A DNA stretch of 64,000 nt from an uncultured Gammaproteobacteria bacterium (GTDB lineage: Bacteria > Patescibacteriota > Patescibacteriia > UBA9934 > GWF2-40-263), in NCBI GenBank assembly GCA_964399675.1, contig CAYNRK010000001.1:64424-128423 (forward strand), read 5' to 3'. Position 1 is the first letter of the stretch, and every line of letters starts with the position of its first letter. The position numbers were made by a program, and so were the translations under genes. Shown here one piece after another: positions 17,153 to 59,026 of this stretch. The notes beneath the pieces are model-generated. The model was not told the DNA's origin, ran no database searches, and worked only from the letters and a program-made list of their open reading frames with translations.

Positions 17153-17187
17153 TAAGATTAGTGGATCACGTCAAGGAGCAGCGTAAA

Positions 17188-17703: not shown

Positions 17704-17734
17704 CCAGCTCCGCGGTTCGCGTTCTGGATCTGTA

Positions 17735-17828: not shown

Positions 17829-17937
17829 ACGTAAAGTGCCTGGCGGCACCACGTCCCAAGGGGAACATCTTGTTCCATAAATTGGGCATCCTCTGCCTGT
17901 CGGTTTGTACACCACAAAAAGAGGAAAGGAGAGATAC

Positions 17938-18396: not shown

Positions 18397-18417
18397 GAGA
18401 GCAACAACAACATCGAA

Positions 18418-18549
18418 CCGGAGTGTGCGAGCAAAAGCCTCCTCTCCGGTACGAACAGTGACGAAGACGTCGTCACTCTTATCCCACAAAGCTCTAAGCT
18501 ATGTGGGATCCTCAGACGAGTTCTTGATTAGTCAAGTATTCATCTGAGG
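18418..18549 (+). repeat. Composite structured unit U, copy 2
   Basis: Same four-hairpin organisation with compensatory substitutions (AGTGACG/CGTCACT; CCTCAGA/TCTGAGG). Confidence 0.7.
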
Positions 18550-18586
18550 GTAATTCTGCCCAGACAACACGGAGGGGAAAAGAGAA

Positions 18587-18931
18587 ATGGAACCGAAATA
18601 CGAGATCGTGCTCACAACGCTTTTCGTCTGGGGCGGAAGCCTGTTGCTGTTCTTGCTCTACCGGCTCTGGCCGCACCTGATCAGTGCCTTTCTGATCATC
18701 TACTCGGTCTTCTTGAAGGGGGCTGGAGCTGGACTGGTCTTTCTCGCGGTCGTCGGGATCATGCTCTCAGAACTGTCCTTCGCGGGCAACAAAACTCAAA
18801 TCAACCCAGACTTCTACTGGGTTATCGGGGCGAGTCTGCTCACATTCTTGCTGGCAGCTCTGGAGTCCTACCTGGTTATCAGGATCAACCGTAGGTCCGA
18901 GAAGCACAACAGGCTTTGGGACGTGCGATAA
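18587..18931 (+). CDS. Membrane protein (114 aa)
   Basis: GGAGGGGAAAAGAGAA-ATG; 3 TM helices. Confidence 0.5.
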   Translation: MEPKYEIVLTTLFVWGGSLLLFLLYRLWPHLISAFLIIYSVFLKGAGAGLVFLAVVGIMLSELSFAGNKTQINPDFYWVIGASLLTFLLAALESYLVIRINRRSEKHNRLWDVR

Positions 18932-18935
18932 GGAG

Positions 18936-19163
18936 GTCCTTGTGAGAAGGATGCTGTTCATCATTCTGGTCGCCCTGGCGATCGGGAGTTACGCTGTCGA
19001 GATCTTCATGGTCATTGACATGGCCAAGCTTTTCCCGGAGACGATCGTCAACTGCGGAGAGCAATGTGAGCCGGGAAAGCCGTTGTTCAACACGAATTTC
19101 GGCTTGGGCACCGCGTTCCTGCTCTTCGGCTCGTTGAGCTTTTGCGCTTACACCAAGCGCTGA
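18936..19163 (+). CDS. Small membrane protein with CxxC (..CGEQCEPG..)
   Basis: GTG start after AAGGAGG; two TM segments. Confidence 0.4.
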   Translation, partial: VLVRRMLFIILVALAIGSYAVEIFMVIDMAKLFPETIVNCGEQCEPGKPLFNTNFGLGTAFLLFGSLSFCAYTKR

Positions 19164-19180
19164 ACTCAAGCCGAGTCAAA

Positions 19181-19302
19181 CCGGAGGAGCGGGCGTGAGT
19201 TCTCCTCTCCGGCATTGTTGCCTAGCAACAATCTGTCCCACAAAGCTCTAAGCTATGTGGGATCCTCAGATAAGTTTTTTATCAAAGAAAATTTATCTGA
19301 GG
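19181..19302 (+). repeat. Composite structured unit U, copy 3
   Basis: CCGGAGGAGC...CTCCTCTCCGG; ATTGTTG/CAACAAT hairpin; CCCACAAAGCTCTAAGCTATGTGGG; CCTCAGATAA/TTATCTGAGG. Confidence 0.7.
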
Positions 19303-19320
19303 AAAAAATAGGGGGAAGTC

Positions 19321-19656
19321 ATGGTGCACGGTAGTACCACCGTAGAACAGTTGAGTTCACTCGTTCTGAACATCATGGTGACCGGCTGGGTTGTTGTCAA
19401 GAACGACAGCGGCGCAGACCTGTTTTCCATGACGTTCGGAGATGAGATCGAACTCGCATCCCCAAAAGGGAAGATCAGTGTGATCGCTGACGACACTGGT
19501 CTGGGTGCTGACGTGGAGGGTCAGCACGTAAGACTCCGCTGGGGCAAAAACGAACTCGGGCCTTTCACGGTCTGGTTCATTCCCACTGAGCGCAGAGCAA
19601 CGCTGATCGCTTTGCATCTGAGCCGTAAGCTCGGGCGCATGGTGTGCGTTCTCTGA
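19321..19656 (+). CDS. Hypothetical soluble protein (111 aa)
   Basis: SD GGGGGAAG before ATG; last gene of the GC-rich island. Confidence 0.45.
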   Translation: MVHGSTTVEQLSSLVLNIMVTGWVVVKNDSGADLFSMTFGDEIELASPKGKISVIADDTGLGADVEGQHVRLRWGKNELGPFTVWFIPTERRATLIALHLSRKLGRMVCVL

Positions 19657-19783
19657 CAGTTGGCAGCGAGGCAGGACACGACATCCTGCAGCGCCCCCAT
19701 AGCTCCGAAGGAGCAACGGGGGCCCTCACCTAAGTCGTTACCTCTCTGTGGCGACTAAGCTGAGGGGAGCTCGTTCCTTAAAT

Positions 19784-36776: not shown

Positions 36777-36851
36777 GGCCCCATCGTCTATCGGTTAGGA
36801 CGCCAGGTTTTCATCCTGGAAAGCGGGGTTCGACTCCCCGTGGGGTCACCA
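36777..36851 (+). tRNA. tRNA-Glu (anticodon UUC)
   Basis: Acceptor GGCCCCA/TGGGGTC, anticodon loop TTTTCAT, T-loop TTCGACT, encoded CCA. Confidence 0.9.
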
Positions 36852-36919
36852 AAAAGAAACTAGTTCGAGTACTCGAGAAGGGTCGCATCGAATTTCAAGA
36901 AGAACTACGAAAGTAGTTT

Positions 36920-36952
36920 CTTTTTGTTGTGGTAAAATACAACAAATGTGAT
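36920..36952 (+). promoter_or_regulatory. C-box-like palindromic operator overlapping the promoter of the HTH gene
   Basis: TTTGTTGT-GGTAAAAT-ACAACAAA inverted repeat immediately upstream of a TATAAT -10. Confidence 0.4.
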
Positions 36953-36971
36953 ATAATTAGGCTAAGCTTAT

Positions 36972-37178
36972 ATGATCAACGATGCAAAAAAACTTGGCGA
37001 GAATCTAAAGAAGATTCGAATGGAGAAAGATATTACTCAATCGAGTATTGCAAGAAATCTTGGAGTTGATCGATCTTTTGTGAGTAATATCGAAAATGGG
37101 AAAACTAATCCTACTCTTTCTACTATTACAAATCTTGCCAAGTCACTAGGGGTTACGACTAGTGAGTTATTGAAATAA
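36972..37178 (+). CDS. XRE-family HTH protein, controller (C) protein-like
   Basis: LKKIRMEKDITQSSIARNLGVDRSFVSNIENGKTNPTLSTITNLAKSLGV = HTH_3 with the conserved GK.NP.L motif of RM controller proteins. Confidence 0.65.
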   Translation: MINDAKKLGENLKKIRMEKDITQSSIARNLGVDRSFVSNIENGKTNPTLSTITNLAKSLGVTTSELLK

Positions 37179-37190
37179 ATCCTGAATCTA

Positions 37191-38180
37191 ATGTCTACGA
37201 TGCTTAACAAAGCAGATATTCTAGAAAATGACCTACGGGAAAAGTATCCCGTTGTTTTGGATTTACTTTTGACTGATCAGACAACCAAAAAGAATATATT
37301 TTGGGCTACAAATGACTATCAACACCTTGGAAAGGGTTATGAATATAGCTCTCCAATATCTCCCAAATTAATTACCAACGGAAACGGTCACGTCATAATG
37401 CCTCGAGCAGAAAAAGCAAAGTCACTTCAACAAATGCGTGTTCGTGGTATGGCTGAAGTATTTACTCCATCGTGGGTTTGCAATGCTCAAAACAACATTA
37501 TTGATAATTATTGGTTTGATACTGATAATCTATTTAATACAGAAATTACCAACAAACATGGAGAAAATTTTTGGAAAACGAATACAAAAAAAATAAGTTT
37601 TCCAAAAGGTAAAACTTGGAAAGAATACATACAAGATACTCGTCTTGAAATTGCATGCGGAGAAGCTCCTTATATCACTAGTCGTTACGACACAACTACA
37701 GGCAATTTTATTCCTGTAAAAAATCGTATTGGAATACTCGACAGAAAACTTCGTATTGTCAATGAACATACGAAAACTTCTAAAGATTGGCTAAAGGCTT
37801 CACAAGAAGCTTTCAAAAATACGTACGCTTATGAATGGCAGGGAGACAGCCTGCTCCTTGCGAGAGAGTCAATGTTATTCACCTTTATTGAAAATTACTT
37901 GGTCAAATTTGGTAAAAACCCCCAATCAAATTCAATTAAAAAATTTGCTGAAATAATATCTTGGAACGTTTGGCAGATGGATGGACTAACAGGCACTATC
38001 CCTAACAGTTGTAATGAACAAAAGCAAACATCCACTAACTTATTTGGTGAAACTGAGATTACAAAATTGAAATGTGTAGGTTGTAAAGAAAATGAGATAA
38101 AAGCACACAGTGGTGCATACTGTCTCATTAAGGATTGGAGAAATAATACACAGGTGCGCTTTATTGATTTATTAAAATAG
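37191..38180 (+). CDS. Hypothetical protein with methyltransferase motif X/I-like segments but no catalytic NPPY
   Basis: AEVFTPSWV (motif X-like) and LEIACGEAPYI (motif I-like, cf. LDPACGSGxFL); no (N/D)PP(Y/F/W); occupies the position of the R gene in C-controlled RM operons. Confidence 0.4.
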   Translation: MSTMLNKADILENDLREKYPVVLDLLLTDQTTKKNIFWATNDYQHLGKGYEYSSPISPKLITNGNGHVIMPRAEKAKSLQQMRVRGMAEVFTPSWVCNAQNNIIDNYWFDTDNLFNTEITNKHGENFWKTNTKKISFPKGKTWKEYIQDTRLEIACGEAPYITSRYDTTTGNFIPVKNRIGILDRKLRIVNEHTKTSKDWLKASQEAFKNTYAYEWQGDSLLLARESMLFTFIENYLVKFGKNPQSNSIKKFAEIISWNVWQMDGLTGTIPNSCNEQKQTSTNLFGETEITKLKCVGCKENEIKAHSGAYCLIKDWRNNTQVRFIDLLK

Positions 38181-38186
38181 CAACAT

Positions 38187-41100
38187 ATGGCAAAACCGGA
38201 AATAATTAATACCTCCGCTCTAGATGAACTTATTTTTGGTCGTGTTGAACCACACATCTATGCTTTTTCTACGGAGACTGTCCCTAACTACTTAAAGGTT
38301 GGCGATACATATCGTCCATTAGAGATGAGATTAGATGAGTGGCGTAAACATTTTCCAAATTTAGAAAAGAGATTCGAAAGAATTGCAAAAGTTGATGACA
38401 AAACATTTTTTAGAGACCATGCTGTTCATTATTTTTTGGAAAATGAAGTCAACAAAGAAAGATTAGAGCAAAATCAGATAAAAAATCTACCATACTACTC
38501 AAATGAGTTTTTCAAAAATGCTAGTACAGAAGATCTAAAAAAAGCTATTGCAGACATAATAAAGTCTTATAAAAACAATGACTATAAATATCAATATTAT
38601 AGTTTTGAAGAAAGTCGGATCCCTCTTACTCACCACTACAGCAGAACTGAAAATTACAACCCTAGACCCAATCAACAAAAAACAATAGATAGCTTTAAGA
38701 AAGCAGTTAAAAATGGGCATACAAATCTTTTGATGTATGCAGTAATGCGCTTTGGAAAATCATTTACGTCAATGTGTTGTGCCGTCAATATGGGCGCAAA
38801 ATTTGTATTGGTAGTCTCAGCGAAGGCTGATGTAAAGGAAGAATGGAAAAAAACAGTTGAAAGCCACATTAAATTTGATGGTTACAGTTTTTTAGATAGC
38901 AATTCACTTTTACAAAACAAGAGTATAATTTCTGACAATCTATCAAGTAATAAAAAAGTAGTTTTATTTCTTACATTACAAGATCTACAAGGTGATGCGA
39001 TTAAATCAAAACATAAAGAAGTTTTTGCTAAGCAGATTGATCTATTATTAGTTGATGAAACACATTTTGGCGCAAGAGCTGCTGAATATGGAAAAGTTTT
39101 AAAAAAACAAGAATTTAGTAAAAAAGAGATAATCAATGAGTTAAAACTAAATGATAGTTCTTTAGACGATTTAGAGGAAACGACGAAAAATCTTAATGCA
39201 AAAGTGCGTATTCACCTATCTGGAACACCGTACAGAATTTTGATGAATAGTGAATTTACAGACGACAATATAATTGCCTTTTACCAATTTTCTGACATTG
39301 CCGATGATCAAGAGAACTGGGACGAAAAAAACCTCAACAAGGATGAAGCGAAAGAATGGGACAATCCATACTATGGGTTTCCACAAATGATTCGCTTTGC
39401 TTTTAACCCAAACGAATCGTCTCGTAAAAAGATGGAAGAGATGAAAAAAAACGGGGTCACATATACTTTTTCAGCATTATTCAAACCAAAATCGATAACA
39501 AAAGATACAGCAAACAGCCTACATAAAAAATTCACTCATGAAAAAGAAATTGTAGATTTACTACATGTAATTGATGGCTCACAAGAAGATGAAAATTTAT
39601 TAAGCTTTCTTGATTACGATAAGATAAAAGAAGGAAAAATGTGCAGGCACATGGTATGTGTTTTGCCTTATCGTGCTTCATGTGATGCTTTAGAGAAGCT
39701 TATCAAAAGTAATAAATTTAAAAATCTGAGTGATTACGAAATTATTAATATTTCTGGTGTTGATAATGAAAATAAATACAAAGACACACAATCTGTTCAA
39801 GCAAAAATCAAAAAATGCGAAAGTAAGGACAAAAAAACAATTACGCTGACAGTTAACAGAATGCTCACAGGTAGCACAGTACCTGAGTGGGATACCATGC
39901 TCTATTTTAAGGACACAGCATCCCCGCAAGAATACGATCAAGCTACATTTCGTCTACAGAATCAATATGTCAAAACATACACTGAGCCAAATGGTGATGT
40001 TATGAAATACAACATGAAGCCACAAACTCTTTTAGTTGATTTTAGTCCAAATCGAATGTTTGAGATGCAGGAGCACAAATCTCAAATATACAATGTAAAT
40101 ACAGAATCAAACGGAAATAGTAAACTAGAAGAAAGGCTAAAAAGGGAACTGGAAATATCTCCTATCGTCGTTCTAAACAACAAAAAAGTAACTCAAATTT
40201 CACCTGCTGACATTTTAGATGCTATTAGAGAATATTTTAGCAGCAGGAGTGTACTAGACGAGGCTACTTCCATTTCAGTAGATTATTCACTCTTGGATAT
40301 AGACATAATCAAGGCTGAAATTGAAAAGCAAGGTAAAATAGGATCACGACAAGGAATAGAGATCAAACCTGCCGATGGTGAAGGAGATGAGCTTGATACA
40401 GGCAACGAACAGCTTGATGACGGCAAAGATAAAGAAAAGGACGAGGCTACTGACAGTACAGAAAATGAAGTGGAAGCAGATTATAGAGGAAAATTTGCAA
40501 TGTATTATGCAAGAATTCTATTTTTTACATTCCTTACAGACTCAAAAATAAAATCCCTTCACGAGATAATCACGCATATTGACAGCAATGAAAATAACCT
40601 ACGAATAGCAGCAAATCTAAGCCTAGAAAAAAATATACTTTCATTATTCCAAGAGCATATTAACCCTTTCGTACTCAGTGAATTAGACTACAAAATCCAC
40701 AACATAAATTCACTAGCAAATGATTTATCTTTAGAACCGGTAGGGCGGGCAAGCAATGCGTTGAAAAAGTTTAGTCGCCTATCCGATTCCGAAATTGTAA
40801 CACCTGAATTTGTCACTGAAAAAATTATTGATTTGTTCCCCAAAAATGCAATTACCAATTCAACAAACATTCTTGATATAGCGTCGAAACAGGGTGAATT
40901 TGTGTATGCTGTTTACAAAAAATTTGGCAAAAGAATAGCAAATAATTTCTTTTCAATCCCAACATCTAAGATCGCGTACGAGTTCACTAGAAAAGTGTAT
41001 AAGTTGCTTGAATTAGATGTAAATAACATTGAAAAAAACTATACTTCCTACGATTTACTTGAGAAAAATGATTTGATCGCAGGAAATAATTTACAAATTA

Positions 41101-42146
41101 ACAATAAAAATATGAAATTCGATGTAATTGTGGGGAATCCTCCATATCAAAAAAGCGATGGTGGAGCACAAGCGAGTGCTAAACCCATTTACAATGATTT
41201 TGTCAATATTGCAAAAAAACTAAATCCGGAATACGTTTCAATAATTATGCCAACACGTTGGTATGCTGGTGGCAAAGGTTTAGATTCTTTCAGAGATGCA
41301 ATGATCAATGATAAACACATAGCCGAACTGCATGATTTTCTTAGACCAGATTTGCTTTTTAGAGACATCAATCTAAGAGGTGGTGTTTGCTATTTTCTTT
41401 GGAGCAAATCATACGATAACACAAAAAGACTTACAAAAGTTTTCACATACAGAAATAGTTTAAAACCTGAGTCACACACCCGAAATCTAAAAACAGAAGA
41501 TTCCGAAATCTTTATTCGACACAATGTAGCCATAAACATATTAAAGAAAGTAAAAAATTATTCAAAATTCAAATCACTTGAAGATTTTATCTCATCCAGA
41601 AAACCCTTTGGATTTGAAGCCAACATAATTAAAAAAGTGAAACTCTTTAGACCAACAGCCAACAAATTAAAAAATCCCATTATCTGTTATGGGAAAGGGA
41701 GGAAAGTTGGTTATTTAGAAAGATCAGAAGTTAAAAAAAATGATGAATGGATTGATAAATATAAAGTGTATACGCCGAGAGCTAACAACATTGGAACGGA
41801 ATTGAATGATGATAATTTGAATGCTTTCATAGGAAACCCAAAAACAATTTGTACAGAATCTTATATCGTTGTTGGTGTTGATTTAGAATTAAATAAAACA
41901 TCTGCTCAAAATATTCGTAAATATTTCAAAACAAAGTTTGCTAGGTTTCAACATAACATAAGAAAAGCTAGTCAAGATGCCACATCAAAGACCTACAAAT
42001 TTGTACCCCTACAAGACTTTACCTCAAAATCAGATATAGACTGGAAAAAATCAATTAATGAAATTGACCAACAACTATATAAAAAATACAAATTAACCAA
42101 AAAAGAAATAGACTTTATTGAAAGTATGATTAAACCAATGAGATAA
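38187..42146 (+). CDS. Fusion protein: T5orf172/GIY-YIG-like N-terminal domain + SF2 helicase/ATPase + N6-adenine DNA methyltransferase (NPPY) + C-terminal putative target-recognition region
   Basis: N-term HIYAFSTETVPNYLKVGDTYRPLEMRLDEW...NEFFKNAS parallels the T5orf172 gene downstream; Walker A AVMRFGKSFT, DExH LLVDETHFG, SGTPYR motif III; MTase motif I-like ILDIASKQGEFV and motif IV VIVGNPPYQ. Confidence 0.7.
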   Translation: MAKPEIINTSALDELIFGRVEPHIYAFSTETVPNYLKVGDTYRPLEMRLDEWRKHFPNLEKRFERIAKVDDKTFFRDHAVHYFLENEVNKERLEQNQIKNLPYYSNEFFKNASTEDLKKAIADIIKSYKNNDYKYQYYSFEESRIPLTHHYSRTENYNPRPNQQKTIDSFKKAVKNGHTNLLMYAVMRFGKSFTSMCCAVNMGAKFVLVVSAKADVKEEWKKTVESHIKFDGYSFLDSNSLLQNKSIISDNLSSNKKVVLFLTLQDLQGDAIKSKHKEVFAKQIDLLLVDETHFGARAAEYGKVLKKQEFSKKEIINELKLNDSSLDDLEETTKNLNAKVRIHLSGTPYRILMNSEFTDDNIIAFYQFSDIADDQENWDEKNLNKDEAKEWDNPYYGFPQMIRFAFNPNESSRKKMEEMKKNGVTYTFSALFKPKSITKDTANSLHKKFTHEKEIVDLLHVIDGSQEDENLLSFLDYDKIKEGKMCRHMVCVLPYRASCDALEKLIKSNKFKNLSDYEIINISGVDNENKYKDTQSVQAKIKKCESKDKKTITLTVNRMLTGSTVPEWDTMLYFKDTASPQEYDQATFRLQNQYVKTYTEPNGDVMKYNMKPQTLLVDFSPNRMFEMQEHKSQIYNVNTESNGNSKLEERLKRELEISPIVVLNNKKVTQISPADILDAIREYFSSRSVLDEATSISVDYSLLDIDIIKAEIEKQGKIGSRQGIEIKPADGEGDELDTGNEQLDDGKDKEKDEATDSTENEVEADYRGKFAMYYARILFFTFLTDSKIKSLHEIITHIDSNENNLRIAANLSLEKNILSLFQEHINPFVLSELDYKIHNINSLANDLSLEPVGRASNALKKFSRLSDSEIVTPEFVTEKIIDLFPKNAITNSTNILDIASKQGEFVYAVYKKFGKRIANNFFSIPTSKIAYEFTRKVYKLLELDVNNIEKNYTSYDLLEKNDLIAGNNLQINNKNMKFDVIVGNPPYQKSDGGAQASAKPIYNDFVNIAKKLNPEYVSIIMPTRWYAGGKGLDSFRDAMINDKHIAELHDFLRPDLLFRDINLRGGVCYFLWSKSYDNTKRLTKVFTYRNSLKPESHTRNLKTEDSEIFIRHNVAINILKKVKNYSKFKSLEDFISSRKPFGFEANIIKKVKLFRPTANKLKNPIICYGKGRKVGYLERSEVKKNDEWIDKYKVYTPRANNIGTELNDDNLNAFIGNPKTICTESYIVVGVDLELNKTSAQNIRKYFKTKFARFQHNIRKASQDATSKTYKFVPLQDFTSKSDIDWKKSINEIDQQLYKKYKLTKKEIDFIESMIKPMR

Positions 42147-42152
42147 CTATTT

Positions 42153-42749
42153 ATGAACGAAATAATTTATATTCTCATTAACGAATCAATGCCTGGGTAT
42201 GTGAAAATTGGGAGGACAACAAATTTAGAGCAAAGAATTCGTTCACTAGACACAACAAGTGTTCCACTTCCTTTTGAATGTTTTTATGCTTGCACTGTGC
42301 AAGATGCAGATTTTGTTGAAAAGCAACTTCATGATGCATTTTTAGACCATCGAATTCGTTCAAGTAGAGAATTTTTTGAAATATCACCAGAGCGCGTTGT
42401 GTCAGCTTTAAAGATTGCTGAGCTGGAAGATGTTACTCCAGGAAAGGATTATGTTGAATCAGAAGAAGATCAACAAGCATTGAATCAAGCCAGAAAGAGG
42501 CGCGCTGTTTTTAATTTTAAAATGGCGCAGATTCCTGTTGGTGCAGAACTTGTTTTCGTAAATGATGAAAATATAAAAGCAAAGGTTATTGACAATCGTT
42601 TAATTGAAATAAATGGGGAAGTCACAAGCCCTTCTGCTTCTGCTCAAAAATTATTGGGATATTCATATCAGGTTCAAGGAACAATTTACTGGATGTATGA
42701 AGGTGAGACTCTTGATGAGAGACGTCGTAGAATTGAATCTGAGGACTAA
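42153..42749 (+). CDS. T5orf172 (GIY-YIG superfamily) domain protein with DUF4357-like C-terminus
   Basis: IIYILINESMPGYVKIGRTTNLEQRIRSL...FECFYACTV...SREFFEISPERVVSAL then GAELVF...YSYQVQGTIYWMYEGETL. Confidence 0.6.
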   Translation: MNEIIYILINESMPGYVKIGRTTNLEQRIRSLDTTSVPLPFECFYACTVQDADFVEKQLHDAFLDHRIRSSREFFEISPERVVSALKIAELEDVTPGKDYVESEEDQQALNQARKRRAVFNFKMAQIPVGAELVFVNDENIKAKVIDNRLIEINGEVTSPSASAQKLLGYSYQVQGTIYWMYEGETLDERRRRIESED

Positions 42750-42768
42750 TTTATTATTACTTTGCACT

Positions 42769-42805
42769 TCAAACTACCACCGACAGGGCCGGTGGTAGTT
42801 TGATT
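42769..42805 (+). terminator. Hairpin terminator after the defence-like operon
   Basis: CAAACTACCACCG-ACAGGGC-CGGTGGTAGTTTG followed by ATTCTTTTGTT. Confidence 0.45.
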
Positions 42806-43157
42806 CTTTTGTTCTGCAAAACCAACCCATTGATAATGCACTCAAGCACCGACCTCTGTTCCAGCACAGTCCCTTCTTTCAAAACAAACTTGGCATAATC
42901 TTTTAAATCGATAGGTTCAATTGAATCGGCCTTTCTTATTCCTAAGAACATTGCTTGTAACTTTTTAAACTTCTGTATTTCTAGGTTGAGTTTAGCGGTA
43001 AGCTTTACTTGATCTAGTTTTAATGTGTCGATCATCTCAAGCAGCGCCTCGATGAGATCTGTCTCATTAATTGCGGGATTTTTACATTTGTAATTAAAAT
43101 TGTCAAACACCCTGTCTTATGCTACTAATAGTGCGCAACTTCAGAGGGAGAGAGACA

Positions 43158-43910
43158 ATGCAAAGCAAGAACTTTTGTGGTTTCGGTTGGATGCTCGTTG
43201 CCTTGGCCTTGTCCTTTGCCACGCTTTCGGGTTGTCGCTGCGACAGTGATCCGGCAGAGCCTGGTCCGGGTCAAGTGACCCTTGATGGCCAACTGTTCGA
43301 TGTCGACTGGTCGGACGGAGACAGCTTCTCGTGGAAGGTGCCAGGAGAGAAGAAAAAGCGCGGGTCTCGCTTGATGGGGTTCAACACGCTCGAGGACTAC
43401 GGGCCCGTCCACCGGTGGGGTTCCTGGACAGCTGAGGAGTTGTACGACATCGCCAAGGAAGCCGGTCGTTTTGCTGCCTCTCGTGGCTGGAACTGTAGGA
43501 AGACGGGGCGCAGCGGCGGTTACGGGCGAGAAGGTATCCGTTGCCCAGACTTGCCTCGAGAGATGATCAAGAGGGGGCTCGCTCACGCGTATTCGATGGA
43601 TGGACCTTCTGATCCGGCACTGCTGGACTTGCAAAAGAAGGCGCAGGCCGAGGGTCAGGGCATGTGGAAGAATGGAATTCCCGAGGCAATCGTCACCAGT
43701 CTGCACAGCCTCGACGAAAAATCGGGAAAGAAGTCTACGTACGATCGCGTCGTCGACGTAGCCACAGGTCACGCAACACCCGTTACCCACACTGAGACGT
43801 ATAAGCCGTGCCAGGGGGTCTGTAGGCGTGGTAGCTGCATGCAGTACATCCCATACCCACAGAGGTATGGAAAAGACCGGCTGCGGTGTGACAAACAAAG
43901 CGGAGGCTGA
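43158..43910 (+). CDS. Secreted thermonuclease (SNase/micrococcal-nuclease-like) lipoprotein, GC-rich islet
   Basis: Lipobox ATLSGC; DVDWSDGDSF, RLMGFNTLE, GQGMWKNG parallel SNase catalytic motifs (DGDT / RLxGIDxPE / GLW); GC ~60%. Confidence 0.55.
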   Translation: MQSKNFCGFGWMLVALALSFATLSGCRCDSDPAEPGPGQVTLDGQLFDVDWSDGDSFSWKVPGEKKKRGSRLMGFNTLEDYGPVHRWGSWTAEELYDIAKEAGRFAASRGWNCRKTGRSGGYGREGIRCPDLPREMIKRGLAHAYSMDGPSDPALLDLQKKAQAEGQGMWKNGIPEAIVTSLHSLDEKSGKKSTYDRVVDVATGHATPVTHTETYKPCQGVCRRGSCMQYIPYPQRYGKDRLRCDKQSGG

Positions 43911-44117
43911 CCACCTCGCATCGCGATGGGATAGGCTGGGAAGCTGGCGTGTCCTTGTAGTCGTCGTTGACTACGGGATCTTCATCGACGACTAGACCTC
44001 AAGCTGCTATCTTCCTCTTCTGGGAAGCTCTGGTGGCTTTTTTCGTTTGTATTTTTTTAAAAAAATAAACAGAAAACCGCCGAAGCGGTTGAGGAGTGTA
44101 CGCTTGGTTGCTTGTTG

Positions 44118-44762
44118 CTAGGCTGGCACGTCCGGGTAGACCCGATCGCCCATGTCGCCCATACCACCGCCCTTGCCGAGGATGTAGGCGTCGTCGTTGA
44201 GACCGCCATCCATGACGCCCATGATCACCGGTACATCCGGGTGATCCGCTTCGAGCCGTGCTGCGCCTTCGGGACAGCCGACCACACCCACGAAGATGAT
44301 CTTCTTGACCCCTCGCTCCTTCAGGTGTGTGAGTGTTGCGCTCGCACTGCCTCCGGTGGCCAGCATGGGATCCAGGGCAAAGCAGACCTCGACTTCGGGC
44401 GCCGGTTCGGGCACCTTGCTGCCTTCCCAGATTGGTTCGTGCGTGTCGTGGTCCCTGTGCATGAAGACGTGCCAGATCAGCGCCTTGGGCAAGAGGAGCT
44501 GGAACGCATCGAGCATGCCCGCACCTGCGCGCATGATCGGAACCAGTGCGTGCTGCCCAGTCAGCACGTCGCCGTAGCCATCCTCCTGCATCGGAGTTGC
44601 AACTTCGACACGCTCTGTCTGAAGCGTGGTTGTCGCCGTGGTTGCCAGAACGACAGCCAGGCGATGAAGCTGCACGCGCATCTCTGGTGGCTGCGTGGTC
44701 TTGTCGCGCAGCATGGTGATGGTGTCAGCGGCAACTGGGTGTTGGAGAAGGGTGAGTGCCAT
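44118..44762 (-). CDS. upp: Uracil phosphoribosyltransferase
   Basis: PRPP-binding loop FALDPMLATGGSA, C-terminal YILGKGGGMGD...; GGGAGG SD; GC ~62%. Confidence 0.85.
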   Translation of the reverse strand: MALTLLQHPVAADTITMLRDKTTQPPEMRVQLHRLAVVLATTATTTLQTERVEVATPMQEDGYGDVLTGQHALVPIMRAGAGMLDAFQLLLPKALIWHVFMHRDHDTHEPIWEGSKVPEPAPEVEVCFALDPMLATGGSASATLTHLKERGVKKIIFVGVVGCPEGAARLEADHPDVPVIMGVMDGGLNDDAYILGKGGGMGDMGDRVYPDVPA

Positions 44763-44889
44763 AGATCCTCCCGGTTAAGTCCGACGTGAGTATAGACAAA
44801 GACAATCTGATTGTCAATCAAGGCTTTATTGTTGTATATCTTTCAAAACTCTTGACAAAAATACTTTAGTTTGATAAAGTGCTCTTTGT

Positions 44890-45180
44890 ATGAATAAAAA
44901 GTGGGAAACAAAAGAGGTTAATGACCTTTTAAAAGTCATTGTCGCTCTGGAAACCAAAGAACAAGCAAAATGCTTTTTTCGCGATCTTCTGACTGAACAG
45001 GAGCTTGTTGAGTTTGGAAGACGCTGGAAAGTGGCAAAGCTTCTTGATCAAGGGGTTTCCTATGTAGAAATCGAAAAGCAGACCGGTATGAGTTCAACCA
45101 CTATTGCGCGTATTGCTAAGTGGCTTAAGTCTGGAATGGGTGGTTATCAATCAATGCTTCATCATCATTCTCTAATGTGA
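44890..45180 (+). CDS. TrpR-like (YerC/YecD family) DNA-binding protein
   Basis: LLTEQELVEFGRRWKVAKLLDQGVSYVEIEKQTGMSSTTIARIAKWL pattern of the TrpR_YerC family. Confidence 0.65.
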   Translation: MNKKWETKEVNDLLKVIVALETKEQAKCFFRDLLTEQELVEFGRRWKVAKLLDQGVSYVEIEKQTGMSSTTIARIAKWLKSGMGGYQSMLHHHSLM

Positions 45181-45992
45181 GATGGCCCTGTTTTTTGTTG
45201 TCTGCCATCTCTCTGCGGAGAGGTTTTTTATTTATAGTCAAAAATATGTTCACCTTATTAACTTTTACTTGTTCAACAATACAAGCAGATCAAATGTTCA
45301 GTAGCACTCCATGGGAATACGTAAAGCTTGATCCTTCTGGAAATAATCTTGAATCAGATCTTGATTCTTTGCGTTTGATAATGCGAACGATCAGGTTGTT
45401 TGAACCAGCCGCTCGTTTTGTTGTGATGATTGGAAACACCGACCCCTACTACATCTATCTCCAACAATTCAAAAATATTCCCGCATCTCAACGTTCGTTT
45501 GTATTAGAACAATTCGCTAAGCGTTGGGAGATATATAGGGATCGTTTGCAATCCTGGATTGATGAAAAGGCGCCCGACTTGAATGCAGAGGTGGCCAGCT
45601 GGTTCTCGTTTGAAAGGGAGATAGAAGCGAGCACAGGTCGGTCTTTTGAAAAAGAATTTGACGAAGTGCTTATTCGTATTGATGATCTTGCTCAAAAGAA
45701 AGATATGGATCAAGAGTTTGAAGCATTGGAACAACAGTTTGGTTTAGGGAAATATTTTGAAGGACTTGAAAGACCGGATCAGTCATTGTTAAAAGATTGG
45801 ATTCGCAGAAAATTTGCTGAATACACGCTGCAGGCATTGTGGATTAAGGAACTAATGCCAGAAGTGAAGTTTTTACAAAACGAAAAGCCTCGCCAACTTA
45901 GAACGCAAATGTACCAACCTCTTGTGCAAGAGAAATATTCTGAGCCGTTTGAAGTTCTACAACTATTTTCTGATGATAAAGGTTACAGCTAA
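45177..45992 (+). CDS. Hypothetical protein
   Basis: GTGA overlap with the upstream stop; host-like AT-rich codon usage; start uncertain. Confidence 0.4.
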   Translation: MRWPCFLLSAISLRRGFLFIVKNMFTLLTFTCSTIQADQMFSSTPWEYVKLDPSGNNLESDLDSLRLIMRTIRLFEPAARFVVMIGNTDPYYIYLQQFKNIPASQRSFVLEQFAKRWEIYRDRLQSWIDEKAPDLNAEVASWFSFEREIEASTGRSFEKEFDEVLIRIDDLAQKKDMDQEFEALEQQFGLGKYFEGLERPDQSLLKDWIRRKFAEYTLQALWIKELMPEVKFLQNEKPRQLRTQMYQPLVQEKYSEPFEVLQLFSDDKGYS

Positions 45993-46049
45993 GTGAGACC
46001 TCCTTTTTCAGAATCAATTTAGTATTGATTTTGAGAAAAGGAGGGACTC

Positions 46050-46829
46050 ATGATCGGTCATGATGGAAGTGTTCAGATCCCAGCACGCGCGATTCGAAAA
46101 GCGCGTAGAGCGCTTTCAACTCACGCCGAGCAAGTAGTGCGAGTGCTCGAGCAGTTCGAGACCATGGAGTTTGTTGATCCAATCCAGCTCTTTCAACTTG
46201 CAAGCAACAACACGCTTTCGTTCATAGCTTTCTCGTGCTTGGCAACAAAACGCGGTAGCGAGCAGATCATCCTTGAGCTGAGCAAGACGTTCTTCTTCCG
46301 CTCAAGTCGTTTTCTAAAGCAGTGGTGCACTCTATGCGAAGCACTCAATGAGTTGGGGGTTAGCACAAACCTCACAGTCTTTCTTCCCGACCTTGAGCCT
46401 AGGCGAACCTGGGGATGGCAACTCGGCCAAGACGAAATCACCTTGGCTTGTGAGTTGATGGCCGAAGAGGCAGAGGGGTTTCGCAATCAAGGTGTAGTTG
46501 TCAAGCCGTGGTCACAAGTCGAAGAATTCAATCAGGTTGGATTTTTGCAAGCACAAGAGCTGATCGGGGATAAAGCTCCATTGCTTGTTCATCAGGAAGC
46601 TGAACTCTTGAGATCGTTTCCTGAGATTCAGCTTGTTGGCACATACGAAGAAGCTGCAACACGACAGGTGGCCAGCTATGCACACGAAGGACGAGTTCTT
46701 GAGGAGCAGCTTTCAAGTGTGATCCTGCTCCAGTCTGAGCGACCCCCAGAGCGGAAGGATCGCATGTATCAACGTTTGCGCAAAGTGCCGCTACCAATCG
46801 TTCATCCGTTCGATCTGTCCAGGAGGTAA
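46050..46829 (+). CDS. Hypothetical protein (GC-rich islet)
   Basis: Strong SD GAAAAGGAGGGACTC-ATG; GC ~52-55%. Confidence 0.5.
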   Translation: MIGHDGSVQIPARAIRKARRALSTHAEQVVRVLEQFETMEFVDPIQLFQLASNNTLSFIAFSCLATKRGSEQIILELSKTFFFRSSRFLKQWCTLCEALNELGVSTNLTVFLPDLEPRRTWGWQLGQDEITLACELMAEEAEGFRNQGVVVKPWSQVEEFNQVGFLQAQELIGDKAPLLVHQEAELLRSFPEIQLVGTYEEAATRQVASYAHEGRVLEEQLSSVILLQSERPPERKDRMYQRLRKVPLPIVHPFDLSRR

Positions 46830-47221
46830 CCATGGGGCTGAGGTGGCGAACAATGAATCGAAGCTGTGGTGGAATTCCGTCCCACCCTCTACTAGACGGG
46901 CATGGTTCTCGTGCCCGTTTTTCTTTTACCAAAAAAAGGCTTTATGCCTTGCAAAAATTAGATAAATGCGCTAGGGTAAAATTGTCCGATACTGGCTCTT
47001 GTTCCGGTTCTGAGGAGGTAGAAGGAATGCCCCGGAGAGGCCATGGGCTTCCTGCGAATCTGGGAGGCTGCGCGCGCCCGCGCCGGCACTGCCCAGGATC
47101 GAAGAGCGCTGAAAAACGCGCTCGTCATGGAGGCCCTTGGAAGACGTACTTGCGTTGCTGCGGCCTCAGGCAATAGATCTTCTTTCCAGAATACATGCCC
47201 CTGCTGTAATGGGGGTGTGTC

Positions 47222-48022
47222 ATGAATCACGCGGTCAACTGGAAGCGAGTCGGAACCGCTCTTTGGCAGTTCGCACGAAGCAGAGCTCTGTCTTCGGATC
47301 GGGTTGCTAGTGTGCTCAGGATACTGCCTGGCCTCATCACCTTTTGCGGTTCGTACTCGCGATCCAGAAAGGTTGCGCTACGAGTCGGAAGGACGTTGAT
47401 TGCAGGAAACGGCAACACAGAACTTCTGGTGCCAACCTGTCCTGCTTTCTCGCACCGAGACGGCAAGTACACGTACAAAGGGCTGGGCCAAGGAGTTCCG
47501 CTGCTCGTCAAGCTGCACATTCCGTTTCTTCAAGGGATCTCGCGACTTCTGGAAGATCAGGTTTGTGTGAGGATCCTGCTTGCTGATCAAGAGGCAAGTG
47601 TTGGTCCGCTCGCAGAGCGTATTGGCATCGACGAGACTGAGTTCAGGCGAAGGGTTCAGTGCTCGATCACGGCAAGTCGCCGCGCTGTTAGGGGGTTTGG
47701 CTGGCAGGTTGAAGCCATGACAGATGTTGTCCCGGACTTCAGTGCCCGGGTCGAAGCTGTCAGGCGCGAACTGCTTGCTGACGAGTCGACGCGAACGCGA
47801 ATTCGGCGTGACGTGCTCGCTCGCGAGCGTCTTTACGACCTGATCGGATACCCAAAGGATATCCGTTTCGATCGTTCAGCTGAAACGCTGGCGCAATACG
47901 TGACCTTGGGTCGCTTTGCTGCCGAGCGCGATGCACTCATCGCCAACCACACAACCTCAAGCCTGGATTGGTACCGCAATACCGACGCAGGTCTTCTCCA
48001 CAACCCCGTAAGGGTCTACTAG
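47222..48022 (+). CDS. Hypothetical protein (GC-rich islet)
   Basis: 266-aa ORF, GC ~58%, Arg-rich. Confidence 0.45.
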   Translation: MNHAVNWKRVGTALWQFARSRALSSDRVASVLRILPGLITFCGSYSRSRKVALRVGRTLIAGNGNTELLVPTCPAFSHRDGKYTYKGLGQGVPLLVKLHIPFLQGISRLLEDQVCVRILLADQEASVGPLAERIGIDETEFRRRVQCSITASRRAVRGFGWQVEAMTDVVPDFSARVEAVRRELLADESTRTRIRRDVLARERLYDLIGYPKDIRFDRSAETLAQYVTLGRFAAERDALIANHTTSSLDWYRNTDAGLLHNPVRVY

Positions 48023-53950: not shown

Positions 53951-55771
53951 TTATTCGGTAAGTTTTTCAAACAGCGCTTCAAATTCTTCTTTTTCAATTA
54001 CTTCTTTTTCAAGCAGGTGTTTAACAATTTTATCAAGAGCCTGTTTTTCTTTTCGAATTATATCACGAGCTTGCTCTGTTGCGCTATTCACAAGTTTTTC
54101 CACTTCTTTGTCAATTGCCTCAGCAGTTTTCTCAGAGTAGTTTCGTCGTTCATGAATTTCTTTTCCAAGGAAAACCATTTCTTGCGTTTCTCCAAACACA
54201 CGCGGTCCAAGAACTTCACTCATTCCATATCGAGTGACAAGTTCGTAAGCAAGGTGGGTGCATTTTTTTAGATCATCTGATGCACCGGTTGTAACATCTC
54301 CAAAGGTTTCTTGTTCAGAAATAAAGCCACCAAGCATCATTGCCATGTCATCAATAAATTCAGCTCGTTTGTGAAGTCTACGATCTTCAGATGGGAGCTT
54401 GATTGTATATCCACCTGCTGATCCGCGAGAAATGATTGAGACTTTGTGAACAGGATCACAGTTTGGCAACATGTGACCGACTAGTGCATGACCTGCTTCG
54501 TGGTAGGCAGTAATCTTTTTTTCTTCTTTGCTCATTACAAAACTTTTGCGTTCCGGTCCCAGAAGAACTTTTTCAATTGAATCAAGAACATCTTCTTGTG
54601 TGATTGTTTTGTCATCACGTCTGGCCGCACGAATTGCTGCTTCATTAAGCAGGTTCATTAAATCCGCTCCGGAAAATCCTGGGGTTCTTTCAGCAATGCG
54701 TCGTAGATTGACTGCTTTTTCAAGCGGTTTGTTTTTTGCGTAAATTTTTAAGATAGCTTCTCGATCATTAATGTCTGGTAAGTCCAAAATGACTCGACGA
54801 TCAAAACGTCCTGGTCGAAGTAGCGCTGGGTCAAGCACGTCCGGTCTATTTGTTGCAGCAATAACAATCACACCAATGTTTGGATCAAAACCATCCATCT
54901 CAACCAAAATTTGGTTAAGTGTTTGTTCACGTTCATCATGGCTTCCGCCAAGTCCTGCTCCGCGCTGACGACCAACAGCATCGATCTCATCAATAAAGAT
55001 AATACAAGGGGCAGCTTTTTTTGCGCGATTGAATAGATCTCGCACACGAGATGCACCAACCCCCACGAACATTTCTACAAATTCAGATCCACTCAAATGG
55101 AAAAAGGGAACAGCTGCTTCACCTGCAACAGCACGCGCAAGAAGAGTTTTTCCAGTTCCGGGTCTACCCATGAGCAATAAACCTTTTGGAAGCTTGGCAC
55201 CAAGGTCTGAGAATTTTTTTGGATTTTTAAGAAAGTCAACAACTTCATGAAGTTCTTCTTTTGCTTCTTTTGCACCGGCAACATCAGCAAAAGTAACTTT
55301 TTGTTTTGTGTCTTTTATTTCACGTGCATTTGACATCCCAAACGACATTGCCTTATTGCCTGCTCCCTGCATTTGTCTAATCATGAACCAGAAAATGAGA
55401 ATGAGAAGCAGTAACGGCAAAAGAGATGGCAAGATCACACCAAGTAGATATGATCGTGTGCTTCGGTCTTTTACAGCAATGGCTGCTGATTTGAGTTCGT
55501 CTGCAGTAATTCCGTAATCAATCAAAACTTCTGAAAGCGATACTCCAGACTCTTTTCGAGTTTTTTGTTTAGTTCCATCTTTGAGTGTGATGCTCACCTC
55601 AACACCTTCAATATCAATAGACTCAACAACTTCGTTTTCAATTTCTTCAACAAGTGTTGCCATGTTTATATCTTCCGGTTTTTCTTTAGATAAAGAATAG
55701 TTCGAAAAGATAGCTGAGATAATAAGAATACCCAGAACCGCAAAGATGATGTTTTTTGAAAGTGGTTTCAT
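53951..55771 (-). CDS. ftsH: ATP-dependent zinc metalloprotease FtsH
   Basis: Two N-terminal TM, AAA Walker A GRPGTGKT, Walker [13 protein letters not shown], zinc site HEAGH. Confidence 0.93.
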
Positions 55772-57271: not shown

Positions 57272-57347
57272 GGGCCTGTGGAGGTAATCGGTAACCTCGA
57301 CTAAGTTGACGCTAGTAGCTGCCGGTTCGAATCCGGTCGGGTCCACC
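57272..57347 (+). tRNA. Atypical tRNA-like gene (anticodon UGA, C37), copy 2
   Basis: GGGCCTG-TG-GAGG-TAATCGGTAA-CCTC-G-ACTAA-GTTGACG-CTAGT-AGCT-GCCGG-TTCGAAT-CCGGT-CGGGTCC-A-CCA; ~85% identical to 28239-28314 rc. Confidence 0.55.
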
Positions 57348-57391
57348 ACGTAAAGCCAGCTAAGCTGGCCACGTGGTAAACCAATGGCCCG

Positions 57392-57432
57392 GGACCAAAT
57401 AAATCCACCTTTAAGTTTAGGTGGATTTATTT
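57392..57432 (+). terminator. Terminator downstream of tRNA-like copy 2
   Basis: AAATAAATCCACCT-TTAAGTTT-AGGTGGATTTATTTTTT; same stem sequence as the terminator after copy 1. Confidence 0.5.
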
Positions 57433-57498
57433 TTTGAAATTGAAAAGCCGGCCCAGAAGGTTGGGGCCGGCAGATTGAGTGGACGAGCCGAGGTTGGC

Positions 57499-58911
57499 TC
57501 AGAGTCCGTAGTTGTCTTCGCGTCGCAAGCGGCGCATGGGGTAGCCAAGCGGGCCGGCGAACATGGCACGTTCGAAGCGGCTGGCTGCCGGATCCACGGC
57601 GAACTCGAACGCCTTGGTTCCGGTTTCGAAGTATGCCGAGAGCCAGGCAAATCCTGGGATGAGCTTGTGGCTGCGACCGGCCAGCTTGCACACTCCGATC
57701 GAGAGTACTCCGCACGCGAGTCCGTTTGCGAACGCAATGCCCAGCAGCATCATTCCCGCGAGATGGGGTTCGAGGAGTAGTGCGGTTGTTCCGGTCACTG
57801 CGAGCGTTGTGAGCATGCCTGCCCAATGAGTTCCGTCGCTCACGCGCGGCAGGTTCTTCACGAACAGGAAGGCGAACATGACTGGCATGCCGATCCCGAG
57901 CGCCCAGAAGACTATGATCGGGATGAGAACGCAGAAGGTCCAGACCATCATCAGCGAGCCCGCGAAGATGAGTGTGAACATGCGCGTGCAGAATCCGATC
58001 GTATAGCGTGCGAACCCAAGCTCTTCGAGCTTGTCGAGTCGGCGGGCTAGACAAGCCTGATTGTGAGCTTCCTGGATTACCGTGAGTGGGACTTTGTCGA
58101 CTCGGACTGCTTCGCGCTCGGCTTCGCTCAGCTCTTGCCCATCTGAGATCATGTTTCCAGCCATGATGATTGCGGCCCAGCACAAGAAGAAGATCAGGCC
58201 AACCCCCGCATCTCTTGTTGGAAGAGTGGTCCATATCACTTCGATAAGCAAGCTGGTCCAGACCAGGCTGAACGTTACTCGCGCGATTGCGTGTGCGTAC
58301 GTGAGACGCAGCTCCGGACTCGTGCGGAAGTTCTCAGCCTTGGCGCTGCACCAGCGACCAAAGCGCTTGAACATGTTCACGATCCCACCTGGCAGGACGA
58401 ACACGAACAGAAAGAACGCGATCAGAACCACATCGGTGAACCACTTGAAGATCAGATCCGAGACACCTTGGTCACGCAATCTGTCCTTGAAAGCGCTGAC
58501 TGCGATTCCTTGAGCGACTATGATAAGGACCATGGTGAATGCGGCCGGGCAAAGCGCTGCCAGTAGGGCTCCGCTGAGCGTACCGCCACCTTCTGCAAGA
58601 AGAGGTTCCCAGCCATGGCCCACGATTGGTGGAACCAAAGCCGTGACACCCACGAACAGGTACAGCCAGATACGACCGTTCCAGAGCGTGGTTCTGGCAG
58701 CACTTGCTCGCTTGGAAGAGCACGCCCAAGCCGTTTTGGCCGAGCTGACTGCGAGCTCCCAGATTGGCTTGTGGTAGTAGCCGAGCAGGAATCCGGCAGT
58801 GCAGGCCAGAAGCCCGACGAACATGCCAGCCCATGCGAACAGCAGAATCCCGAGCGTTCCGCCCAGAACTCCGCCCACGAAGTTGCGAAGATTGAAGGTG
58901 CGATTGTCCAT
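57499..58911 (-). CDS. Polytopic membrane protein (GC-rich islet)
   Basis: GGAGGG SD before ATG (MDNRTF...); ~10 TM helices; GC ~60%. Confidence 0.55.
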   Translation of the reverse strand: MDNRTFNLRNFVGGVLGGTLGILLFAWAGMFVGLLACTAGFLLGYYHKPIWELAVSSAKTAWACSSKRASAARTTLWNGRIWLYLFVGVTALVPPIVGHGWEPLLAEGGGTLSGALLAALCPAAFTMVLIIVAQGIAVSAFKDRLRDQGVSDLIFKWFTDVVLIAFFLFVFVLPGGIVNMFKRFGRWCSAKAENFRTSPELRLTYAHAIARVTFSLVWTSLLIEVIWTTLPTRDAGVGLIFFLCWAAIIMAGNMISDGQELSEAEREAVRVDKVPLTVIQEAHNQACLARRLDKLEELGFARYTIGFCTRMFTLIFAGSLMMVWTFCVLIPIIVFWALGIGMPVMFAFLFVKNLPRVSDGTHWAGMLTTLAVTGTTALLLEPHLAGMMLLGIAFANGLACGVLSIGVCKLAGRSHKLIPGFAWLSAYFETGTKAFEFAVDPAASRFERAMFAGPLGYPMRRLRREDNYGL

Positions 58912-59026
58912 TTGACCCTCCTCACTCACACACTACCGATTGATTTCGGTATATGCAAATGGTTGGGAAGTTTAGTTAAAATTGTTGGTTTTGTCAAGGT
59001 TTATTAGTTTTGTTAAAGAAAAAACA

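Follow-up and report, generated by a model that had tools for sequence, protein, structure and literature searches.

We analysed a stretch of 64,000 nucleotides from an uncultured bacterium (contig CAYNRK010000001.1; the whole stretch is referred to as the window, and all positions are counted from its first nucleotide). Here we focus on a GC-rich islet at 43135-44790, whose two convergent open reading frames (ORFs) encode a lipoprotein related to staphylococcal nuclease (SNase) and a uracil phosphoribosyltransferase, the product of upp. In the reading that we consider probable, two genes of unlike history stand tail to tail in this islet: the gene of the SNase-fold lipoprotein (hereafter, the nuclease) was imported, and upp is native and vertically inherited. 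A first-pass annotation of the same DNA had reported both ORFs, which are indeed present, and had interpreted them as a nucleotide-scavenging pair acquired together by horizontal transfer. The foreign origin proposed for the nuclease was borne out by our analysis, and that proposed for upp was not. The islet and its immediate borders contain the following features (aa, amino acids):

43158-43910, plus strand: gene of the SNase-superfamily lipoprotein, 250 aa (ORF call, Pfam, profile, AlphaFold2 and Foldseek)
43158-43235, plus strand: predicted signal peptide and lipobox LSGC of the nuclease; codon of Cys26 at 43233-43235
43269-43682, plus strand: SNase domain with an oligonucleotide/oligosaccharide-binding (OB) fold, about aa 38-175 (Pfam, profile and model)
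43683-43907, plus strand: Cys-rich, beta-strand C-terminal extension of the nuclease, aa 176-250
44001-44058, plus strand: intrinsic terminator of the nuclease gene, with its hairpin at about 44001-44039 and a T-run behind it
44060-44090, minus strand: intrinsic terminator of upp, AACCGC-TTCG-GCGGTT followed by a T-run (terminator scan)
44118-44762, minus strand: upp, uracil phosphoribosyltransferase of the candidate phyla radiation (CPR) type, 214 aa (Pfam, NCBIfam and synteny)
44763-44889, no strand: divergent promoter region, 35% GC (promoter scan)
44817-44789, minus strand: upp promoter TTGACA-17-TATACT, with ribosome-binding site GGGAGGA
44852-44880, plus strand: promoter of a trpR-like gene, TTGACA-17-TAAAGT

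Judged from its genes, the host is a Candidatus Uhrbacteria (CPR/Patescibacteria) bacterium. FtsH (53951-55771) shares 80-85% identity with many proteins that carry the name Candidatus Uhrbacteria, and the window has the traits of a reduced CPR genome, including a stand-alone 16S rRNA gene and type IV pilus genes (T2SSF, a pilin and two T2SSE ATPases), in agreement with the reduced-genome organism assumed by the first-pass annotation. Against this background, the islet stands out by its composition. Its GC content is 58.5%, versus 34-35% in the flanks and 43% in the whole window; thus, the block is GC-rich as previously described, although slightly less so than the 60-62% then given. The coding sequences (CDSs) reach 57.9% GC for the nuclease and 62.6% for upp, versus about 40% for the housekeeping genes of the window. 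At third codon positions (GC3), the values are 0.66 and 0.74, respectively, versus 0.23-0.37 for FtsH, TsaD, SMC, RecQ and other housekeeping genes, and the gap to the host GC3 of about 0.30 is far beyond chance for both genes. The GC steps of the islet coincide with the CDS ends. The 125 nt past the nuclease stop (43911-44035) are still 56% GC, and the core between the two terminators (44036-44076) has only 17%.

The nuclease gene has an alternative start, the ATG at 43119, which would extend the protein to 263 aa. We favour the 250-aa form because the ribosome-binding site GAGGGAG precedes the start at 43158. The N-terminus of this form, MQSKNFCGFGWMLVALALSFATLSGC, reads as a signal peptide with the lipobox L23-S24-G25-C26, and the segment MQSKNFCGFGWMLVALALSFATL-S-G-C26 matches the lipobox pattern [LVI][ASTVI][GAS]C. 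Many homologues also carry xxGC or xxAC lipoboxes. Neither Lgt nor LspA is found among the annotated genes of the window, in which no test was aimed at them.

The SNase-like catalytic motifs that had been recognized together with the lipobox are all present, namely DGD in DGDSF (aa 53-57), RLxG..T.E as RLMGFNTLE (aa 71-79) and GxW as GMW (aa 168-170). The Pfam search that had been recommended as a check on 43158-43910 returned SNase (PF00565) with 24.1 bits, above the cut-off of 21, the match covering only model positions 63-107, the C-terminal half. The fold is supported by profile and structural comparisons, which span the whole domain. Residues 15-143 of staphylococcal nuclease (PDB SNase) are matched at E=8e-5 by a profile made from 31 homologues, and the AlphaFold2 model (pLDDT, the predicted local confidence score, 91.7) has the OB-fold beta-barrel and the three helices of the SNase fold. 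All of the top 32 Foldseek matches in the PDB are staphylococcal nuclease, with a probability of 1.00 and a TM-score on the target of 0.5-0.62.

The active site of staphylococcal nuclease can be mapped onto the protein residue by residue: D53 and D55 correspond to D19 and D21, R71 to R35, T77 to T41, E79 to E43, and Y122-G-R124 to Y85-G-R87. R71, E79 and R124, the counterparts of the catalytic Arg35, Glu43 and Arg87, are invariant in the 31 family members, and the full set of invariant residues comprises D53, D55, R71, N76, E79, R124, C113, C129, H211, C218, C222, C227 and C244. Among the Ca2+ ligands, D21 and T41 have conserved counterparts in D55 and T77, and the position of D40 is occupied by Asn76, invariant in the subfamily as part of an NTLE motif. 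The carbonyl oxygen of Asn could still ligate Ca2+. The invariant counterparts of R35, E43 and R87, together with both DGD aspartates, argue for a putative catalytic activity.

Compared with the staphylococcal nuclease/thermonuclease family (PF00565, COG1525 'YncB'; Staphylococcus aureus Nuc, PDB 1STN), the window protein shares the OB-fold core and a secretion signal, and its counterparts of DGD, R35, T41, E43 and Y85-G-R87 stand at identical spacing. In contrast, the identity is only 15-19%, Asn replaces D40, and the window protein has a Cys pair (C113/C129) that is conserved in its subfamily and an extra C-terminal extension of about 70 aa. It also carries a lipobox, whereas staphylococcal nuclease has a plain signal peptide or propeptide. 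The extension is beta-rich and holds one invariant His and four invariant Cys, an arrangement typical of extracytoplasmic proteins. An exhaustive search of 1.84 billion proteins recovered only 190 representatives of the subfamily at E<=1e-3; the subfamily is thus a small, divergent branch of the SNase superfamily.

Homologues of the nuclease point away from the CPR. Outside the window's own cluster we found 95 homologues (110-258 bits), eight of which carry an organism name. All eight belong to Bradymonadales, Deltaproteobacteria, Anaeromyxobacteraceae, Myxococcota or Proteobacteria, and none of these eight is from the CPR. In a neighbour-joining (NJ) tree, the phylogeny that the first-pass annotation had called for, the window protein nests with P0003 and P0002, two homologues whose contigs have 72% and 67% GC, respectively, and a gene content unlike that of CPR. 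On both contigs the GC content of the nuclease gene equals that of its locus; therefore, the gene is native there. The non-CPR contigs of the closest relatives span 56-72% GC. Furthermore, a nuclease beside upp is absent in six related Uhrbacteria loci (L010, L012, L013, L095, L096 and L097). Because its GC3 is atypical, its named relatives are non-CPR and the six related loci lack it, acquisition of the nuclease by the Uhrbacteria lineage from a GC-rich non-CPR bacterium appears well supported, as had been proposed. The donor was most likely Myxococcota- or Bradymonadales-like, judging by the named relatives, and the direct donor is unsampled (best identity 54%).

The islet contains no mobility gene, in keeping with the earlier view that it is not a selfish element. 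Pfam and NCBIfam-type searches of the window found no integrase, no att-like or flanking direct repeats were found around the nuclease region, and searches for a vehicle gave no PHROG match, no plasmid match and no viral-contig relative. We also considered whether the GC-rich 3' tail of the nuclease gene is a remnant of a donor gene, and rejected this, as it has no similarity to the flanks of the best homologue. On its upstream side, the nuclease gene closes a variable region that, with the nuclease as its final gene, measures 7.3 kb:

36777-36851: tRNA-Glu(ttc) (tRNA call)
36777-43110, plus strand: lineage-specific variable region, 34% GC, on the 3' side of tRNA-Glu; the last gene before upp is the nuclease

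The tRNA-Glu gene lies 6.3 kb upstream of the nuclease, and the region does not qualify as a mobile genomic island.

The second gene of the islet, upp, occurs once in the window. Its product scores 173.4 bits with the Pfam family UPRTase (PF14681) and 172.3 bits with NF001097 (cut-off 114). As in the Upp proteins of Escherichia coli and Bacillus (TIGR01091/NF001097), the match extends over the full length, and both the loop that binds 5-phosphoribosyl 1-pyrophosphate (PRPP) and the GD.GDR motif are present. Unlike them, it remains below the TIGR01091 equivalog cut-off (169.6 versus 208.35 bits), has an altered uracil loop and is GC3-enriched relative to its own genome. Its PRPP motif, LDPMLATGGSA, is unaltered, the protein bears the CPR-type signatures PIMRAG and GSKVP, and the residues of the uracil-binding GD.GDR motif are kept (G200, G202, D203, G205, D206 and R207). 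The uracil loop (aa 192-207) reads YILGKGGGMGDMGDR and not YIxPGLGDAGDR, with a 3-aa insertion and a near-invariant Pro changed to Gly. By sequence, the substrate handling of this Upp may differ from that of typical Upp.

In contrast to the nuclease, upp groups with the host lineage. Its nearest relatives are 48-56% identical and come from Candidatus Falkowbacteria, Uhrbacteria, Patescibacteria, or contigs linked to Uhrbacteria through their FtsH, whereas non-CPR upp genes reach at most 45% identity among the matches listed. This last bound comes from a scan of genome contigs with the generic patterns LDPMLATGG and PGLGDAGDR, in which all listed matches are non-CPR. In an NJ tree of upp, the window gene nests inside the CPR upp clade. 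The phylogeny of upp had been named beforehand as the test on which a horizontal origin would stand or fall, and it placed the gene in the CPR/Uhrbacteria clade.

Gene order tells the same story. The block FtsH - 33x-aa protein - T2SSE - TsaE - TsaD - (one gene/APH) - upp is found, with the same relative orientation as in the window, in four genomes (GCA_943356545.1, GCA_016209265.1, GCA_964513275.1 and GCA_003485135.1). A further genome, GCA_041294345.1, has the order RecQ-TrmB-370aa-upp; the window has RecQ and tRNA-Glu on the opposite flank of upp, and the RecQ/tRNA-Glu adjacency is kept in the relative L096. Among four genomes compared pairwise, upp diverges about as much as its syntenic neighbours, with pairwise identities of 46-61% for upp, 49-66% for TsaE and 43-55% for the 33x-aa protein, and the closest pair, L012 and L097, is the same for all three. 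Given its place in the CPR clade, its conserved slot and a divergence that matches that of its syntenic neighbours, we consider upp, on these comparisons, a vertically inherited resident of an ancestral slot and not foreign cargo. It shows neither foreign affinity nor a non-syntenic position, and only its composition is atypical. The claim that upp was acquired horizontally thus conflicts with its affinity, its ancestral position and a GC excess that is clade-wide. In another relative, L098 (GCA_016844925.1), the syntenic slot has no upp and holds a tRNA-Glu instead.

We quantified this excess by subtracting the median GC3 of all other ORFs of a locus from the GC3 of its upp. In nine other CPR-type loci (L010, L012, L095, L096, L097, L139/L207 and L142/L165 show the excess), the offset ranges from +0.10 to +0.38 with a mean of +0.23, and upp tops or nearly tops every locus. 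In 61 non-CPR upp loci from a DNA pattern scan, the offset is +0.03 (standard deviation 0.05), and the difference between the two groups is significant without phylogenetic correction (Mann-Whitney, p = 2e-6). The window upp, with +0.43, is the most extreme. Since a GC3 excess is common to CPR-type upp, GC-richness does not mark this gene as acquired. In L012 and L097, whose upp genes are sister alleles, upp exceeds its genome by +0.16 in each case, and the two genomes are 0.23 apart in GC3; this suggests in-place evolution under a gene-specific, GC-ward pressure over recent import.

Beyond this, we entertain, as a tentative and rather doubtful extension, that a gene-specific force keeps CPR-type upp far above genome GC3, tracking host GC with an offset of +0.10 to +0.43, and that the GC-rich ORFan islets of the window perhaps belong to the same compositional class and are not classical foreign DNA. 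Such a force may be gene conversion that is GC-biased and acts at a hotspot of recombination or integration, repeated loss and reacquisition within the CPR, or selection that favours an A/U-poor mRNA in the case of a pyrimidine-salvage enzyme. Recombination-associated GC-biased gene conversion is known in bacteria (PMC4450053). In every genome examined, upp lies at the edge of a variable region; BipA, however, on the far side of that region, has no GC3 excess. A conserved antisense gene was rejected as the cause of the GC-richness: the window has a full-length antisense ORF at 44112-44789, which is broken in 5 of the 10 CPR upp genes. As a separate observation, an orthologous nucleotidyltransferase-like gene (54% identity) between TsaD and APH, at L012:7901-8776 and L098:16144-17025, has an elevated GC3 of 0.64 and 0.69, respectively, versus about 0.55, which hints that gene-specific GC heterogeneity in Uhrbacteria is wider than upp.

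The two genes of the islet do not behave as a unit. They are convergent and each has its own terminator; hence, they are predicted to be independent transcription units and not an operon. The RNA of 43905-44062 folds with -52 kcal/mol (z=-2.5), and its interrupted hairpin of 15 bp immediately precedes UUUUUUCGUUUGUAUUUUUUU. On the other side of upp, the two divergent promoters scored 11/12 and 10/12 in the promoter scan, and the trpR-family gene that stands back to back with the upp promoter is absent beside upp in relatives. No contig carrying homologues of both the nuclease and upp was found, as far as the listed homologue contigs could be compared. Thus, the notion that both genes were acquired together conflicts with their differing phylogenetic affinities, their convergent arrangement with back-to-back terminators and the lack of co-occurrence in other sampled contigs.

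From the established biochemistry of staphylococcal nuclease, the products of an SNase-type enzyme would be 3'-nucleotides and oligonucleotides. To obtain from these the uracil on which the phosphoribosyltransferase acts, a cell requires a nucleotidase, a system for uptake and either a nucleosidase or a phosphorylase; the islet contains no gene for any of them. Elsewhere in the window there are a DHH/DHHA1 phosphoesterase gene (22271-23245) and pyrD (10980-12128). The proposal that the pair would directly feed nucleotide supply was therefore overstated, given the steps that separate 3'-nucleotides from uracil; a salvage link between nuclease and Upp is plausible but would be indirect.

Our model would be as follows. 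The nuclease would be a Ca2+-type SNase-fold enzyme, exported by the Sec/lipoprotein route and tethered outside the cell membrane. Its gene would have come from a non-CPR bacterium of high GC content, most likely one similar to Myxococcota or Bradymonadales, and would have landed at the end of the variable region downstream of tRNA-Glu, immediately behind upp. The enzyme would most likely degrade DNA and RNA, either extracellular or derived from a host, to oligonucleotides and 3'-nucleotides that feed scavenging. Upp, encoded by the host's own gene in its ancestral slot, would convert uracil and PRPP to uridine monophosphate. The GC-richness of upp would reflect the gene-specific GC3 excess of CPR-type upp, extreme here, and not co-acquisition, and any cooperation between the two proteins would be indirect.

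Several points weigh against this model. The substitution of the D40 ligand by Asn (N76) throughout the subfamily means that the putative activity is not guaranteed. With best database identities of 54% for the nuclease and 56% for upp, neither the donor nor the age of the transfer can be fixed, and the trees are unreconciled NJ trees that lack support values. For CPR-type upp the sampling is thin, with nine loci that represent about seven organisms. The two GC-rich CDSs are nearly contiguous, with only about 40 nt of AT-rich terminator core between them. Finally, at third codon positions the window upp (A.13, C.40, G.33, T.13) has the base composition of the window's other GC-rich ORFan islets and comes close to the nuclease, which would fit a single GC-rich donor pool too.

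This compositional similarity would also follow if both genes had arrived in one event, from a GC-rich Uhrbacteria-like donor that already had the nuclease behind upp, with homologous or homology-facilitated recombination swapping the resident upp allele and bringing in the nuclease on about 1.65 kb. We regard this as unlikely, although not without arguments. The GC-rich block 43135-44790 is contiguous; allelic replacement by a CPR-type upp would keep both synteny and clade membership; upp, the nuclease and the remaining GC-rich islets resemble one another in GC3 and in the composition of third bases; and the window upp is slightly nearer to the L010 allele (55%) than to those of L012 and L097 (48-49%), while the housekeeping neighbours are roughly equidistant. 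In addition, most transfers into Patescibacteria stem from other Patescibacteria (PMC12455944). However, none of the eight named homologues of the nuclease (of 95) is from the CPR, and no contig with both homologues turned up among the listed contigs that could be compared. The upp excess occurs in every CPR-type locus examined, and some of these would require donors with more than 60-65% GC, of a kind that is rare or unknown among CPR. Moreover, the GC steps lie exactly at the CDS ends, whereas recombination end points would be expected inside the flanking homologous genes. The joint origin favoured by the first-pass annotation, in which one foreign, non-CPR GC-rich donor delivered both genes as an adaptive scavenging module, has the adjacency of the genes, their shared GC-richness and a plausible functional theme on its side. 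We consider it highly improbable, given that upp belongs to a CPR clade and a conserved Uhrbacteria slot, that the relatives of the nuclease are Myxococcota-type, that there is no operon, and that a GC excess is normal for CPR-type upp.

A different question is what the nuclease does, its origin being the same. It could serve in an attack on the host or prey, in clearing a matrix of extracellular DNA, or in processing DNA for uptake by the type IV pilus or competence machinery, or it could be a catalytically weakened nucleic-acid-binding lipoprotein. Taken together, we regard these roles as a rather doubtful alternative to scavenging. The subfamily is concentrated in Myxococcota and Bradymonadales, which include predators; the window has type IV pilus genes; and the invariant Asn in place of D40 and the extra Cys-rich domain would suit a changed function. 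Against them, neither of the DGD aspartates varies in the family, nor do the counterparts of R35, E43 and R87, and nucleotide biosynthesis is generally missing from CPR genomes (PMC12455944, PMC11495043). Nutritional and alternative roles are also not mutually exclusive. As for an artefact, sharp GC switches at several places in the window could suggest that a chimeric assembly or binning contamination had joined GC-rich DNA to a low-GC CPR contig. The islet locus, including the same junctions, recurs with 99.5-100% identity in eight or more contigs, which stem from several samples and from assemblies of JGI, ENA and Logan; therefore, it is no assembly chimera. With AT-rich, host-like promoters and terminators also abutting the GC-rich CDSs, the probability of an artefact is practically nil.

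The surroundings of the islet have features of their own. Within the variable region, a low-GC module at 37191-42749 (31-36% GC) encodes a helix-turn-helix (HTH) gene, a 329-aa ORF, a 1319-aa type IIG restriction-modification enzyme (ResIII+Eco57I) and T5orf172 (GIY-YIG-like); the variable region also holds a 113-aa ORF. This module looks like a defence island, and its composition deviates from that of the host in the direction opposite to the adjoining nuclease. Between APH and upp, at 44890-48022, the window has four genes extra compared with other Uhrbacteria, namely the gene of the trpR/YerC-family regulator (40% GC), which is divergent to upp, and three ORFans (271, 259 and 266 aa, with 39%, 51% and 57% GC, respectively). 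The ORF at 47222-48022 was considered as a counterpart of the GC-elevated nucleotidyltransferase gene that relatives carry between TsaD and APH, and was rejected as unrelated.

Further GC-rich DNA occurs at 14000-19700, where 5.7 kb at 52-68% GC hold at least seven small ORFs with GC3 0.65-0.93, several of them membrane- or secreted-looking. Neither these nor the remaining GC-rich ORFs of the window match Pfam or PHROG, and they have no homologue in the related Uhrbacteria loci examined. Two tRNA-like genes, at 28240-28315 (minus strand) and 57272-57348 (plus strand), are 76-77 nt long, 90% identical and called tRNA-Ser(tga) by ARAGORN; neither has the long variable arm that a Ser tRNA should have, and only 28240-28315 reaches the Rfam tRNA threshold. 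GC-rich ORFan islets lie directly 3' of them (26964-28134 and 57360-58929), which suggests tRNA-adjacent insertion sites. An S-adenosylmethionine (SAM, S-box) riboswitch at 13072-13173 (minus strand, 60.9 bits) stands upstream of the ORF 12463-13002 (minus strand; 179 aa, 52% GC, GC3 0.56, no Pfam match). The 16S rRNA gene (7918-9415, minus strand) is alone, with tRNA-Ile and tRNA-Phe diverging from it at 7544-7700 and no 23S or 5S gene within the window. Thus, the rRNA operon of this host appears to be unlinked.

The finding is a lineage-specific import of a divergent SNase-family lipoprotein beside a native upp, by ordinary horizontal transfer. SNc-type secreted nucleases have been described in over half of the activated-sludge Patescibacteria metagenome-assembled genomes, with an explicit nucleobase-salvage hypothesis (PMC11495043). 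The window nuclease resembles them as a secreted SNase-type protein in a CPR organism with few other secreted proteins, and the same rationale has been proposed for both. In contrast to them, the window copy lies outside a CPR nuclease lineage, has Myxococcota-type kin and is absent at the related Uhrbacteria loci. Horizontal transfer into Patescibacteria, including that of nucleotide-metabolism genes and restriction-modification islands, has also been documented (PMC12455944). With such genomic islands, the region shares an atypical composition, adjoining restriction-modification and T5orf172 genes, a tRNA gene beside it and metabolic cargo. It differs from them in that no integrase, att repeats or phage or plasmid relatives were found, and in that upp is not island cargo.

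Our results also carry a caution about method, as GC-richness alone mislabels a native, syntenic gene as foreign in this Uhrbacteria lineage. If the GC3 excess of CPR upp holds genome-wide, it would lend itself well to the study of how compositional heterogeneity persists in tiny genomes; biased gene conversion, recurrent exchange within the CPR and selection on mRNA composition would then be the candidates. Finally, CPR/Patescibacteria rely on scavenged nucleic-acid building blocks, and a concrete case of nuclease import from an unrelated, probably predatory, bacterium would support the published salvage hypothesis.

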